A stretch of DNA of 64,000 nt from a virus, in IMG/VR virus record IMGVR_UViG_3300045988_096557; one strand, written 5' to 3'. Position 1 is the first letter of the stretch. The number at the start of each line of letters is the position of its first letter. Made by a program: the position numbers and the translations under genes. Positions 38,057 to 42,614 of the stretch are shown piece after piece. The notes beneath the pieces were generated by a model. The model had not been told where the DNA came from. It saw nothing but the letters and a program-made list of their open reading frames with translations, and did not search any database.

Positions 38057-38599
38057 ATGTATAGACTTCTTGTGATTGTAGATGCGCAGAATGATTTTGT
38101 TACTGGCTCTCTGGGGTCTAAGACAGCGGATGCCGCAGTTCCCAATATCGTAAGTTTAATTCAAAACCATGAGTGGGATAATATCGTTTGTACTATGGAT
38201 ACACATGGAGACGATTATTTTGAAACCCTTGAGGGTAAGAAACTGCCAGTAAAACATTGTGAACAGACTAGTCCCGGCTGGTGCATGGATTCTCGAGTTC
38301 TTGTTGCTCTTGGTAACAAGTATAATTTTTACGAGAAAGATACTTTTGGCAGTACAGATATGGTAAATGAAGTTTATAATTCTTTAAAGATGAAGAATCA
38401 AGAGGAAGTAGAAATTCATATTTGCGGATTCTGTACCGACGTTTGTGTTATGGCTAATACGGTTATGCTTCGCGCGGCGATGCCAAATACTAGAATCGTA
38501 GTTCATAGTAGAGCCTGTGCTGGAGTTACCAAAAAGGCACATGAGGCCGCCCTTGAAATTTTTTCTTCTCAACAAATTGATGTGGAGGATTGGGTATGA
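38057..38599 (+). CDS. Isochorismatase-family cysteine hydrolase (nicotinamidase PncA-like)
   Basis: VIVDAQNDF .. catalytic Cys context. Confidence 0.5.
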   Translation: MYRLLVIVDAQNDFVTGSLGSKTADAAVPNIVSLIQNHEWDNIVCTMDTHGDDYFETLEGKKLPVKHCEQTSPGWCMDSRVLVALGNKYNFYEKDTFGSTDMVNEVYNSLKMKNQEEVEIHICGFCTDVCVMANTVMLRAAMPNTRIVVHSRACAGVTKKAHEAALEIFSSQQIDVEDWV

Positions 38600-39408
38600 T
38601 TACTTTGCTTAATACACGCAGTCATTGGACAGACATAATTGAACAAAATCATTTTCCAGATAGTACGCTGCATATTAATATGCCTCCTAACTACTTCGAT
38701 TATGATACGATTGTTTGGGAGTACGAGAATGATGCAGAATTATTTACTCTCATTTGTGTTAAGGGGCATTTCGAAGATTTTCCTGTAAACCTAGATATGC
38801 CATATATTCCTCATGCAAGAATGGATCGAGTTCAAGAACTTGAAGATGTATTTACCCTAAAATACTTCTGTCAAGTAATTAATAGCCTTCATTTTGATAA
38901 AGTTATTGTGCGTGATGCTCATTCTAATGTATCGTTAGCTCTACTTGATAGAGTTATTGATCTTAGTCCAATTGGAGAAATCAAAGAGGCTATTAAGAGA
39001 ACTGAGAAATATGAAGGAGAAATTCCTATCCTATTTTTCCCGGATGAAGGAGCGATGAAGAGATATTCTGTTCCACCTATTAATCTTCCTTATGCTTTTG
39101 GAATTAAGAAAAGGGATTGGTCTACTGGAAAAATTCTTGGTTTGCAGTTAATGAATAGTGAAGTTGTTAAGGATAATAATGTCCTTATTGTAGATGATAT
39201 TTGTTCCCGAGGTGGAACTTTCTATCATGCTGCAAATGCCCTCAAAGAAGCTGGTGCAAAGAATATTTATCTGTATGTAACTCATGCAGAGCATACCATG
39301 ATTGAGGGCGATATGTATAATCAAGATATTGTAAAGAAAATCTTCACTTCTGATAGCATCTTCAAGACAGAGTGGGATATTAGAGGAAAGGTAGAGATTG
39401 TAAGATGA
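38590..39408 (+). CDS. Phosphoribosyltransferase-fold protein (PRPP synthetase-like)
   Basis: PYIPHARMDR and VLIVDDICSRGGT PRPP-binding motifs. Confidence 0.5.
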   Translation: MGMITLLNTRSHWTDIIEQNHFPDSTLHINMPPNYFDYDTIVWEYENDAELFTLICVKGHFEDFPVNLDMPYIPHARMDRVQELEDVFTLKYFCQVINSLHFDKVIVRDAHSNVSLALLDRVIDLSPIGEIKEAIKRTEKYEGEIPILFFPDEGAMKRYSVPPINLPYAFGIKKRDWSTGKILGLQLMNSEVVKDNNVLIVDDICSRGGTFYHAANALKEAGAKNIYLYVTHAEHTMIEGDMYNQDIVKKIFTSDSIFKTEWDIRGKVEIVR

Positions 39409-39854
39409 CTATTGAGAAACTTCAAGAGTTAAAGATTATGGCTCTTAAAAATGGAAATACAAATACAAAGAGGGTACTTTCTGACATGATTGATGCGTGT
39501 TAGAAAGCAGCCATTACTCCAAAAGGAAGAGTTGAATTGACTGAACAACTAGTTGACGAAACCCTTATCAAATATCAAAAGACAGTACAAGAAATGATTG
39601 ATACCTGTCCTGCTAGTTATCCTGAAAAACTGCATCAATATCAAGAGGATATGAAGGTAGTAAAGATGTGTGCCCCTCAGCTTATTACTGATAAGGCAGA
39701 AATTGAAACAAAAGTAAGAGAGATTGCTGGAACCGCAGGTATTGATCTCCTCAAAACAAATCGTGGTGCGCTTATGAAATCTATTTCTATGGAGCTTAAA
39801 GGTAAAGCAGATATGAAGATTGTAAGTGCTGTTGTTGGAGGGTTGTTAAAGTGA
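39405..39854 (+). CDS. Hypothetical protein; in-frame TAG at 39501-39503
   Basis: ATGA overlap with upstream gene; in frame with ORF 39537..39854. Confidence 0.45.
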
Positions 39855-40219
39855 ATCTATCTTTAGAGCAGACTCTTGCATCTATTCTTCAGTCGCTCGC
39901 AGATTTTTTTGGAGTAACAACTCAAACTATTATGGAAAATGCTCCCATGTGGCTGGCCAAATATGGTTGGTATGTAACTATTAAAGATTTAGGATTAACT
40001 ATCTTTATTGGAGGATTTATTGGTATTGCTCTTGTTGGTGGATTATTTTTTATATTTTATATAATGCTTGATGCAGATTATAAAAAATGGCACTCAGCTA
40101 TGTTTATAACGATAGCAATACTTGCAATTATTATAACAATTTTTATTCCAATTATTACTTGTATCATCGCTCCAGAGTATGTTGGAATTGAAGCACTACT
40201 TAGATTGCTTCAAAGTTGA
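39851..40219 (+). CDS. Membrane protein
   Basis: ORF track; multiple TM segments. Confidence 0.5.
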   Translation: MNLSLEQTLASILQSLADFFGVTTQTIMENAPMWLAKYGWYVTIKDLGLTIFIGGFIGIALVGGLFFIFYIMLDADYKKWHSAMFITIAILAIIITIFIPIITCIIAPEYVGIEALLRLLQS

Positions 40220-40252: not shown

Positions 40253-40302
40253 ATAAAAATATATGATATAATATATTTAAGAAATAAGGAAAGGAAGATT
40301 TT

Positions 40303-41892
40303 ATGAGTTTCTTTGATGTAGCTCCAATGTTTGCCGCTGACTACTACAAAGTTGGTCATGCTATTAAGATGCAGCCGAAGTCTGCTTCTATGGTTTATTC
40401 TACTTGGACAGCTCGCAGTTATAAGCATCATCCAAATTGCCCTAAGACAGTGGTCTTTGGTCATCAATATACCATCCAGAAACTACTTGAATTTTGGCAG
40501 ACAGAGTTCTTTGATCAGTCAGTTGAGCTTCTTGAACAGGAGTGGAATCATGTAATTAAAAATACTTTCCATCCTGATTATGCGGATTTTACCAAGTTTA
40601 AAGAATTACATAAACTTGGTTATTTACCTATTTCTATCATGGGAGTTCCAGAGGGTACGCTTCTTCCCGTCGGGATTCCAGATCATGTAATTTTTTCTAA
40701 TCATCAAAATTTTGCGTGGCTTCCGCAATTTATCGAAGATCAGTGGAGCGCTAATAACTGGCTCCCCTCGACTTCTGCCACTACCGCTTTCTATCGCCGC
40801 AAGTTAATTGAGCCTTATGTCAAGACTAGCTGCGACGATATGTCTGCTCTTCCACATATGTGTGGCGACTTTTCTCTGCGCGGACATACAAGTCTTGAGG
40901 CAGGCTATATCTCAGGTGCTGCCCATGCTCTTTCTTTTGATAGAACTGCAACCATTGGTTCTAACCTTCTCCTTGAAAAATACTATGGAGCAGATCTTGA
41001 GAATAATCCTCCCATGATGGGAACTCCTTCTCTTGAGCACTCTGTTGTTGAACAAGGTGTAGCTTGGATGAAGCAGAAGATTACTAATGGAGATTTAACT
41101 GAAACTGAGCGTTATCTTTTCTCTAAGGCCGCTTTTGATAATTGGGATATTAACCTTATTGCAGAAATGCTTTTTATTAATTATCTTTGCACAGAAGTGC
41201 AACCTACAGGAACTATGACCTATGTATCTGATACATATGATTATTGGGGTATTGTATCTAAGGTTCTTCCTATGTTGCACGATGTTATTGCAGCAAGAGA
41301 TGGATGTTTCTCCGTTCGACCTGATAGCGGAGATCCTGTAAAGATTATCTGCGGCGACCCAGATGCTGTACCCGGTTCTCCTGAGTTTATAGGAACTTTA
41401 AATCTTCTAAAAGAAATCTTTGGCGGTGAATTGAATACTAAAGGATATTTTATTCTTCCTTCTTATATTCGTATGATTTATGGAGATGCCATTACTCCAG
41501 AGATTACTGAAAAAGTTTGCTCTTGGTGCGTTAGAAATAATATCTCAGTATCCAATCTATGTTTTGGAATTGGAGCTTATACTTATCAGTATGTAACTCG
41601 TGATACTAGAGGCTATGCTATTAAAGCTACAGATTGTATCCTCGGCAATGATGAAATTCAGATTTATAAAATGCCTAAAACCGACCCTGGGAAAAAGTCT
41701 CCTCGTGGATGTGTTGCAATTTTTAAAGAGGAGAATGGCGATTATTCTTTAGTAGAAAATCTTACTCTTGAAGAATCCATTGGATATAAGAACAATGTAA
41801 TGAAATTTAAAGTCAAGAATGGAAGTTTCTGTACGGAGAGCGTAGAGACTATCGAAACTATTAAAGAGAGATTGATGGGAGAAGTTCTATGA
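40303..41892 (+). CDS. nadV: Nicotinamide phosphoribosyltransferase (NAMPT)
   Basis: 529 aa; N-terminal YKVGH.. NAMPT-like pattern; length and architecture typical. Confidence 0.55.
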   Translation: MSFFDVAPMFAADYYKVGHAIKMQPKSASMVYSTWTARSYKHHPNCPKTVVFGHQYTIQKLLEFWQTEFFDQSVELLEQEWNHVIKNTFHPDYADFTKFKELHKLGYLPISIMGVPEGTLLPVGIPDHVIFSNHQNFAWLPQFIEDQWSANNWLPSTSATTAFYRRKLIEPYVKTSCDDMSALPHMCGDFSLRGHTSLEAGYISGAAHALSFDRTATIGSNLLLEKYYGADLENNPPMMGTPSLEHSVVEQGVAWMKQKITNGDLTETERYLFSKAAFDNWDINLIAEMLFINYLCTEVQPTGTMTYVSDTYDYWGIVSKVLPMLHDVIAARDGCFSVRPDSGDPVKIICGDPDAVPGSPEFIGTLNLLKEIFGGELNTKGYFILPSYIRMIYGDAITPEITEKVCSWCVRNNISVSNLCFGIGAYTYQYVTRDTRGYAIKATDCILGNDEIQIYKMPKTDPGKKSPRGCVAIFKEENGDYSLVENLTLEESIGYKNNVMKFKVKNGSFCTESVETIETIKERLMGEVL

Positions 41893-42614
41893 CTAATACG
41901 GTTACTAAAATTATAGATTGGATTAAAGAGTATTTCATAAAAAACGGGCCGGAGTGTAAAGCTGTTATCGGGATTTCTGGCGGCAAAGATTCTACAGTGG
42001 CTGCGGCTCTTCTTTGTAAGGCTCTTGGCCCGAATCGAGTAATTGCCGTACAAATGCCACAGGGATTCCAATATGATATTGATGTTTCTAATGAGGTAAT
42101 TGATTACCTCGAAATTACAGAGCATTACAACATCAATATTGGTTCATCTTGTCAGGAGATTTTCTTGTCTTTGCCCAATGATATTAGAATTCAGCCGCAA
42201 GTTACAAGTAATGTTCCAGCAAGAGTAAGAATGAATATCCTTTATGCAATCGCCGCGAGCCGTCATGGAAGAGTTGTGAATACTTGCAATAGAAGTGAAG
42301 ACTATGTAGGCTATTCTACTAAATTTGGAGATGCAGCAGGAGATTTTTCTATTCTCTCTAATTATACTGCCACGGAAGTTAAAGAAATTGGTATTGAGCT
42401 TGGATTGCCAAAGAACTTCATTGAAAAGCCTCCAGAGGATGGATTAAGCGGTTTAACAGATGAGGAAAATTTAGGATTTTCTTATGATGTCCTAGATAAT
42501 TTCCTACTTAATGGTATTACTCCTCCATATGAGATATATAAAAACATTGAACAAAGACATAAGAGAAATTTACATAAGATTTCCCCTATGCCAACTTGTC
42601 CATTCTTTTCTTAA
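41889..42614 (+). CDS. nadE: NAD+ synthetase-family PP-loop ATP pyrophosphatase (NadE-like)
   Basis: GISGGKDS PP-loop motif. Confidence 0.55.
   Translation: MTNTVTKIIDWIKEYFIKNGPECKAVIGISGGKDSTVAAALLCKALGPNRVIAVQMPQGFQYDIDVSNEVIDYLEITEHYNINIGSSCQEIFLSLPNDIRIQPQVTSNVPARVRMNILYAIAASRHGRVVNTCNRSEDYVGYSTKFGDAAGDFSILSNYTATEVKEIGIELGLPKNFIEKPPEDGLSGLTDEENLGFSYDVLDNFLLNGITPPYEIYKNIEQRHKRNLHKISPMPTCPFFS

Follow-up and report, generated by a model that had tools for sequence, protein, structure and literature searches.

A NARP1-type gene module with a remodelled transferase pocket, a nicotinamidase and an NAD synthetase in a virus genome: a candidate deamidated route to NAD+

Results

The DNA analysed here, hereafter the window, is a stretch of 64,000 nucleotides from the IMG/VR virus record IMGVR_UViG_3300045988_096557, in which four enzyme genes at positions 38057-42614, all on the plus strand, make up a putative cluster for the reconstitution of nicotinamide adenine dinucleotide (NAD+). 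The first encodes a PncA-like nicotinamidase of 180 aa (38057..38599; Pfam PF00857 Isochorismatase, 1.6e-18), and the second an enzyme of 270 aa with the Prs fold that resembles Adps and is predicted to be an ADP-ribose pyrophosphokinase (38596..39408; phrog_619, 1.6e-65). They are followed by a Namat-like transferase of 529 aa (40303..41892; phrog_448, 2.7e-131), predicted to join nicotinate to ADP-ribose pyrophosphate (ADPR-PP) and thus to make nicotinic acid adenine dinucleotide (NaAD), and by a single-domain, NH3-dependent NAD synthetase, NadE, of 241 aa (41889..42614; Pfam PF02540 NAD_synthase, 4.4e-46). The original prediction, made from the letters alone, had named nicotinamidase, Prs-like, NAMPT-like and NadE-like families; all four were recovered by profile matches to Pfam, PHROG and NCBIfam, the annotation by hidden Markov models (HMMs) that it had proposed as a check, and its outer coordinates for the cluster are exact. 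The grouping of the four genes is not due to chance: dozens of further phage contigs, as well as genomes of Clostridia, have the same four families side by side.

The genes had further been described as consecutive, and here only part of the description stands: the four families are present, but three features lie between the Prs-like and the NAMPT-like genes, namely a YqeY-like gene, a membrane open reading frame (ORF) and a terminator-like hairpin. The YqeY-like gene (39405..39854, plus strand) encodes 149 aa that match the whole of Pfam profile PF09424 (35.6 bits), and in the ORF map under code 15 it reaches full length only when the TAG in frame at 39501-39503 is translated, here as Gln. 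YqeY also lies between the Adps and Namat-like genes in four other loci (L002-L004, L062), and the protein is probably outside the NAD chemistry. The small hydrophobic membrane ORF (39851..40219, plus strand; 122 aa from GTG, or 95 aa from ATG at 39932) had no family match in Pfam or PHROG and is kept only in the closest relatives, L002-L004. After it stands a strong terminator-like hairpin (40221..40245, plus strand; a 10-bp stem with 5 GC pairs, then a T run), which splits the cluster. Since gene ends overlap in the ATGA manner within the PncA/Prs-like/YqeY/membrane ORF block and again within the NAMPT-like/NadE block, the cluster reads as two adjacent transcription units, the second closed by another hairpin at the end of NadE (42612..42637, plus strand; an 11-bp stem, then a T run). 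Upstream of PncA, a consensus scan found a promoter-like site, TTGACG-17-TATTAT (37882..37910, plus strand), with a match at 10/12 positions; such sites were not enriched in the region over shuffled sequence, which makes this one weak evidence.

In the phage pathway NARP1, the Prs-like enzyme Adps converts ADP-ribose and ATP into ADPR-PP, and the NAMPT-like enzyme Namat joins nicotinamide to it to form NAD+ (Osterman et al. 2024, bioRxiv 10.1101/2024.02.11.579819). The Prs-like protein of the window failed every NCBIfam Prs cut-off: it scored 81.8 bits against the 113 required by TIGR01251, and 31-78 bits against the 296-536 required by the equivalog models. Prs structures in the PDB matched it at best with 3e-16. 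It aligns with the Adps proteins of 38 canonical loci, and the Adps proteins encoded beside canonical Namat genes share with it a hairpin, K-x-R-D..T-G-x-I, and a PP loop, D-D-I-C-S-x-G-G-T-F. These motifs read K-K-R-D-W-S-T-G-K-I and DDICSRGGTF in the window protein, compared with KERDFATGKI and DDICSYGGTF at the canonical locus L011. The gene precedes the Namat-like gene by 0.9 kb, and relatives of the protein are common in phages; tblastn found 1463 records in the GenBank phage collection at E<=1e-8. The pair had been read as a PRPP-synthetase-like enzyme (PRPP, phosphoribosyl pyrophosphate) with a NAMPT. Judged by these cut-offs and motifs, it is instead a homologue of NARP1, of the Adps/Namat lineage. 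The link drawn in the original prediction to phage NAD+-reconstitution pathways was correct.

The closest PDB sequences to the NAMPT-like protein were the crystal structures of SPbetaL1 Namat (9W5X/9W5W, 7e-95), with human NAMPT at ~1e-39. Its AlphaFold model (predicted local distance difference test, pLDDT, 90.7) likewise had Namat as the best fold, with a template modelling (TM) score of 0.93, target-normalised, followed by Haemophilus NadV and human NAMPT. The adenine selectivity clamp of Namat is present as GAYTYQYVTRD, which agrees at 10/11 positions and has Tyr at positions 3 and 7, and the catalytic His, Arg306, Asp308 and the TRD residues of Namat are conserved. In the window-type proteins an insertion of ~35-40 residues, predicted to be helical, occupies residues ~250-289, right after the catalytic His; SPbetaL1 Namat is without it.

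The part of the active centre that differs is the pocket for the pyridine base. In Namat, Phe189 and Tyr15' flank the nicotinamide, to which Asp215 forms a hydrogen bond, and Ala242, Arg192 and Arg306 complete the pocket; the D215A substitution lowers NAD+ synthesis 8.1-fold (PMC12774641). The equivalent Asp219 defines the nicotinamide specificity of human NAMPT (PMC7096376, PMC12143786), and the structurally equivalent residue of the nicotinate-specific human nicotinate phosphoribosyltransferase (NaPRTase) is Ser214 (PMC4442680). The segment SFxGTDT of Namat and Nampt is SFDRTAT in the window protein, in which Ala216 takes the place of the Asp and Arg214 that of the Gly; two further replacements are His by Gly188 and Ala242 by Ser243. 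The amide-binding Asp was missing in 120/120 of the closest proteins of a large protein database, and related clades without it (non-Asp) have Ala or Ser at position 216. Two candidate substitutes were rejected. Asp213 fails as a shifted stand-in for Asp215, because position 213 varies in non-Asp proteins (D, N, A, T, S, G, V) and because this segment is free of Asp in the Clostridium group, and Arg214 is not a universal carboxylate binder, being Gly in the GGAS group.

We then scanned all 529 positions, grouping proteins by residue 216 and using representatives of <70% identity (22 Asp-type and 17 non-Asp). Apart from the defining position 216, the two groups were without a common residue only at 188 and 243, and the next-ranked positions (240, 337, 241, 185 and 214) fall in the same short segments as the pocket residues Phe189, Arg192, Asp215, Ala242 and Arg306. 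Both groups were alike in the catalytic His, in the contacts to ribose and phosphate and in most adenine-clamp residues; they therefore diverge mainly in the region of the active site that recognises the substituent of the pyridine. The aromatic residue of the clamp was retained at position 3 in 96/99 and at position 7 in 64/99 non-Asp proteins. The label nicotinamide phosphoribosyltransferase, given to the protein in the original prediction, is hard to maintain: Namat is closest in both sequence and fold, the amide-binding Asp is replaced, the replacement tracks PncA and NadE (see below), and the enzyme probably does not use nicotinamide.

The nicotinamidase of the window is a divergent member of its family, because it scored only 21 bits with the NCBIfam PncA equivalog model, far below the cut-off of 174. 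Its PDB matches include the pyrazinamidase/nicotinamidases 1ILW and 3PL1, and Asp9, Lys94, Cys130, Asp48, His50 and His67 are each at least 95% conserved among 41 homologues. From PncA structures, we take the first three to be the Asp-Lys-Cys catalytic triad and the last three to be the metal site. NadE, at 157 bits, passes the cut-off of NCBIfam TIGR00552 (63.65) and has a conserved SGGKDS P-loop at residues 30-35. It is without a second (glutaminase) domain, and as a single-domain enzyme it should be NH3-dependent. Its PDB matches are NH3-dependent NAD synthetases, and the top one, 3FIU (2.3e-31, 112 bits), stands barely above the NH3-dependent NAD synthetase 2E18 (4.3e-30, 108 bits); we take 3FIU to be the NadE of Francisella tularensis that works as a nicotinamide mononucleotide (NMN) synthetase. 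A Francisella NadE homologue has been reported to have this activity (PMC3376133). A regular-expression search of six-frame translations for the NMN adenylyltransferase motif G-x-x-x-P-x-H-x-G-H, a weak test that covered 64 kb of a phage of ~149 kb, found none.

The relation between pocket type and neighbouring genes was surveyed at 168 loci with a relative of the NAMPT-like protein, 81 from phages (IMG/VR and Phass-1) and 87 from bacterial genomes or other assemblies. The viral sample comprised Phass-1 and the best 80 of 303 matches, ranked by similarity to the window protein; an alignment was used as the query for viral contigs, as a scan with a single protein had reached only close relatives. 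PncA, Adps or NadE within 8-10 kb was scored by tblastn and by HMMs trimmed to the window proteins. The trimming mattered: PncA matches that had appeared in every Asp-type locus were an artefact of an Adps part in the untrimmed PncA HMM, and the trimmed one gave none. Apparent PncA-Adps fusions (L072, L079, L081) were also unreal, their "PncA" ORFs reading through a TAG stop into the adjoining Adps.

None of the 38 viral and none of the 18 bacterial Asp-type loci had PncA or NadE nearby. In contrast, all 43 non-Asp viral loci had one or the other (34 had both, and for the other 9 the contig stops on the side concerned), as did 67 of the 69 non-Asp bacterial loci, counting those with both. Together, PncA or NadE accompanied 0/56 Asp-type and 110/112 non-Asp loci, for which Fisher's test gives p = 5e-24, a figure that is no true probability as the sequences are related. 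One clear exception among non-Asp loci is Clostridium carboxidivorans P7, where Adps and the Namat-like gene stand alone. An Adps-like gene was found by HMM at 56/56 Asp-type and 106/112 non-Asp loci, and no NadD or NMN adenylyltransferase (NMNAT) gene, indeed no nucleotidyltransferase, inside any module examined.

The association holds across at least three deep non-Asp lineages of 31-40% mutual identity (the window type; SFDKTST, with a 10-residue insertion in the clamp; and SFTGTAT of Clostridium) and across four gene orders: PncA-Adps-Namat-NadE, Adps-PncA-Namat-NadE (Clostridium), Adps-Namat-NadE-PncA (L031) and genes spread over 10 kb (the L041 group). In phage L062, Adps, YqeY and NadE are 53-56% identical to those of the window and the transferase comes from another non-Asp lineage, which suggests that the two transferase lineages are interchangeable. 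Chromosomal bacterial versions of the module were found at L082 (5455-9470) and L083 (6596-10270). On the Clostridium saccharobutylicum chromosome the order is NrtR, Adps-like, PncA, Namat-like, NrtR being a repressor that is released by ADP-ribose (PMC2330246), and in an Oscillospiraceae metagenome-assembled genome (MAG) PncA, Adps-like, Namat-like and NadE genes lie directly upstream of rpmG-secE-nusG-rplK-rplA. Two further arrangements were seen. At L088 an AAA_28 (NadR-like) gene and a PnuC transporter gene (2533-4342) form a pair ~4-5 kb upstream of the module that recalls NARP3, and at L084/L085 a NADAR-domain gene (9621-10499) lies between the Namat-like gene and NadE.

Depletion of NAD+ is a common outcome of anti-phage systems (Thoeris, DSR, SIR2-HerA and others), to which NARP1, NARP2 and NARP3 are known phage answers. 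On balance, we lean slightly towards the view that the window cluster is a NARP1-type NAD+ reconstitution module that has been extended and rewired through deamidated intermediates, nicotinate and NaAD. NAD+ cleaved, for example by a NADase defence of the host, would yield ADP-ribose and nicotinamide. PncA would convert nicotinamide to nicotinate and NH3, and the Adps-like enzyme would make ADPR-PP from ADP-ribose and ATP. The Namat-like enzyme, with its adenine clamp kept and its pyridine pocket remodelled, would join nicotinate to ADPR-PP to give NaAD, which the single-domain NadE would turn into NAD+ with ATP and NH3. The mononucleotide step would be skipped, because an Adps-type enzyme points to ADPR-PP rather than PRPP as the donor, and the net reaction would equal that of NARP1 but consume one more ATP. 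All substrates and products in this scheme are predictions, drawn from the family identities, the intact catalytic motifs of each enzyme, the pocket substitutions and PncA/NadE co-occurrence that we observed.

The logic of the pathway favours the deamidated scheme. A nicotinamidase encoded in the same operon as a nicotinamide-using Namat would remove the substrate of the latter, NadE would be without a substrate if no deamidated dinucleotide were formed, and the modules examined contain neither NadD nor NMNAT. The scheme gives each gene a substrate and removes the nicotinamidase paradox, and is the most economical reading of the cluster. By analogy with NARP1, and from its genomic setting among likely tRNA-repair genes, the module may have an anti-defence role.

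Several observations weigh against the deamidated scheme. The substrates of all non-Asp members are predicted from sequence. Position 2 of the clamp motif, Ser391 in Namat, is Ala in the window protein, and Arg or Lys at 214, a possible carboxylate binder, is missing in the Clostridium GGAS subgroup. The window NadE does not separate by sequence from an NMN synthetase, the PDB scores being too close. In a neighbour-joining tree the Asp-type proteins fall in one clade; the Asp/non-Asp split is thus perhaps a single ancient event, and the Fisher p of 5e-24 overstates the independence of the loci. The same module is found in Clostridia chromosomes beside housekeeping genes or under NrtR, so that it may be ordinary salvage metabolism borrowed by the phage, and its chemistry need not be specific to defence. 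Finally, the deamidated route is the costlier one. Speculatively, it could serve in hosts whose own PncA quickly removes nicotinamide, it could trap the base as an anion, or the NadE step could add a thermodynamic pull.

The strongest rival, unlikely in our view though deserving of serious consideration, is a PRPP-based Preiss-Handler salvage, in which the Prs-like enzyme would supply PRPP, the NAMPT-like enzyme would form nicotinate mononucleotide (NaMN), a host NadD would convert this to NaAD and the phage NadE would finish, with PncA feeding in nicotinamide. Any nicotinate-using enzyme, whatever its ribosyl donor, would be compatible with the pocket changes and with PncA and NadE as neighbours; the NCBI label on the Clostridium homologues is nicotinate phosphoribosyltransferase; and the chromosomal copies in Clostridia suggest housekeeping salvage. 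Moreover, Namat itself keeps PRPP activity in vitro (PMC12774641), and prs-nadV operons have long been interpreted in this way (PMC2330246). The Prs-like protein, however, is of the Adps type, given the failed Prs cut-offs and the shared PP-loop and hairpin motifs, and the adenine clamp that selects ADPR-PP is kept in the non-Asp proteins, with an aromatic residue at position 3 in 96/99 and at position 7 in 64/99. NadD is never part of the module, and a generic need for PRPP does not demand the Adps-like gene found at 106/112 non-Asp loci.

An ordinary nicotinamide-using NARP1, to which PncA and NadE were added independently and in which they channel excess nicotinamide or nicotinate into the Preiss-Handler enzymes of the host, seems to us improbable. 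It is in keeping with the presence of Adps and Namat homologues that have the clamp and all catalytic residues except the pocket trio, and phage NARP1 operons are known to acquire accessory genes (10.64898/2026.01.28.702374). Yet the amide-binding Asp is missing, the loss of which in Namat D215A impairs the enzyme 8-fold; the three pocket positions change jointly, and solely at loci that have PncA or NadE; and the enzyme would have to share its substrate with a co-expressed nicotinamidase. More improbable still is an NMN-synthetase route, from nicotinate and PRPP to NaMN, by the NadE-like enzyme to NMN and by a host NMN adenylyltransferase to NAD+: the top match of NadE to 3FIU, presumably the Francisella enzyme, speaks for it, but the margin over the ordinary synthetase 2E18 is negligible, NadE passes the NCBIfam NAD synthase model, the weak test for an HxGH adenylyltransferase motif in the window was negative, going from nicotinamide through nicotinate and NaMN to NMN is a detour compared with a plain NAMPT, and the Francisella NMN synthetase pairs with a NadM that replaces NadD, whereas no NadM-like partner was found in or beside any module examined.

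The ORF map and the tRNA content of the window indicate that TAG is a sense codon in this phage (code 15). Reading TAG as Gln merges the ORFs of an RNA ligase into one gene (36538-37809) and those of a phosphoesterase into another (33824-34582), and gives an endolysin (49557-50966) with nine TAG codons and an ORF at 58201-59034 with 8. None of the ORFs retained in the code-15 map needs TAG as a stop, and a tRNA with the anticodon CTA (27477-27552) is among the 31 tRNAs of the window. The NAD genes themselves are without TAG. The nearest GenBank record, the human-gut phage Phass-1, is classified in the 'code 15 clade'.

The NAD cluster is embedded in a likely set of RNA/tRNA repair genes that occupies 33824-37809 and 42695-45430. 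Besides the RNA ligase, the set comprises an RNase T-like exonuclease (35372-36187), a Thg1-like tRNA-His guanylyltransferase (43419-44273), an AAA_33/PNK-like kinase (44337-44870) and three metallophosphoesterases (33824-34582, 42695-43426 and 44867-45430); the phosphoesterase directly after NadE is kept in L002-L004 and L062. In the endolysin, Phage_lysozyme2 and Amidase_2 domains are joined by a weak match to S-layer homology. Among bacterial copies of the module, those in Oscillospiraceae MAGs are the closest, and L089, a contig of 148,971 bp whose Namat-like protein is 91% identical to that of the window, is binned in such a MAG, which hints at a Clostridia (Oscillospiraceae) host.

Other genes of the window include the array of 31 tRNAs (10178-28613), with a transfer-messenger RNA (16751-17066) whose tag peptide is DNDYFENYLAA. 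About 5 kb upstream of the NAD genes (28857-30377 and 30789-33230), an 813-aa protein with Major Vault Protein shoulder and repeat domains (PF11978, PF17795, PF01505) is encoded beside a 506-aa DUF2828/DUF7788 protein, a pair unusual for a phage. An SPFH/Band 7 protein, a PIN-PhoH fusion, GyrB-like and GyrA-like topoisomerase subunits, an ATP-dependent (not NAD-dependent) DNA ligase and an AAA/nSTAND3-like ATPase are encoded at 45582-46478, 47390-48646, 51890-57552 and 20044-21165.

Discussion

The module described here resembles NARP1 in that an Adps-type gene with the Prs fold lies near a NAMPT-fold gene in a phage genome, with Namat as the nearest structure and with the clamp and catalytic residues kept. 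It differs from NARP1 in its pocket (Asp215 to Ala, Ala242 to Ser, His188 to Gly and Gly213 to Arg), in the insertion after the catalytic His, and in the nicotinamidase and/or NAD synthetase that nearly always accompany the non-Asp module, whereas canonical NARP1 loci have neither. The predicted product of its transferase is NaAD, not NAD+.

The module is also akin to NARP1-AP, NARP1 with RyDEP, NARP2 and NARP3, in which accessory or alternative enzymes likewise extend the range of compounds that a phage turns back into NAD+. RyDEP is a glycosidase of cyclic ADP-ribose, and NARP2 consists of Nampt and Nmnat; NARP1-AP adds a Macro-domain phosphatase of ADP-ribose-1''-phosphate, and NARP3 consists of PnuC and a NadR-like enzyme. 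None of the four is known to employ a nicotinamidase, an NAD synthetase or a deamidated intermediate, unlike what we propose for the window module. The marks of NAMPT and NARP2, an equivalent of Asp219 and a partner NMN adenylyltransferase, are missing here, the Asp being replaced and no adenylyltransferase gene lying inside the modules examined. A Pfam scan of ~36 window ORFs found no Macro domain.

With the bacterial Preiss-Handler pathway (PncA, PncB, NadD, NadE) the module would share nicotinamidase as the first enzyme, NadE as the last and nicotinate as the base that is ribosylated. Its transferase, however, has the NAMPT/Namat fold rather than that of PncB, NadD is lacking and an Adps-type enzyme is present. 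The proteobacterial nrtR-prs-nadV operons likewise have a Prs paralogue adjoining a NadV-like gene (Rodionov et al. 2008, PMC2330246), and the non-Asp module of C. saccharobutylicum, too, lies downstream of an NrtR gene, but the proteobacterial copies are Asp-type and without adjacent PncA and NadE.

A full-text literature search, outside which most subscription journals fall, returned nothing relevant that joins NARP1, Namat or ADPR-PP with nicotinamidase, NadE, NAD synthetase or NaAD, and a term search of the NARP1, Namat-structure and RyDEP papers found no nicotinamidase or NadE terms. Within the literature searched, the non-Asp branch linked to PncA and NadE is thus undescribed; NARP1 itself is already known.

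We regard it as an evenly balanced proposition that the non-Asp Namat-like proteins represent a new activity, a nicotinate:ADPR-PP transferase that forms NaAD directly, within a four-enzyme pathway that is widespread in human-gut phages and chromosomal in Clostridium, Oscillospiraceae and Lachnospiraceae. If so, this would be a new transferase specificity, and it would explain why many "NAMPT" genes of gut phages travel with nicotinamidase and NAD synthetase genes. It would also provide a rule for annotation, by which His/Gly/Asp/Ala at positions 188/214/216/243 would be told from Gly-Ser-Ala/x/Ala-Ser/Ser. The role of the chromosomal Adps-PncA-Namat-like(-NadE) operons of Clostridia would be re-opened as well, as these may recycle ADP-ribose in normal NAD+ turnover.

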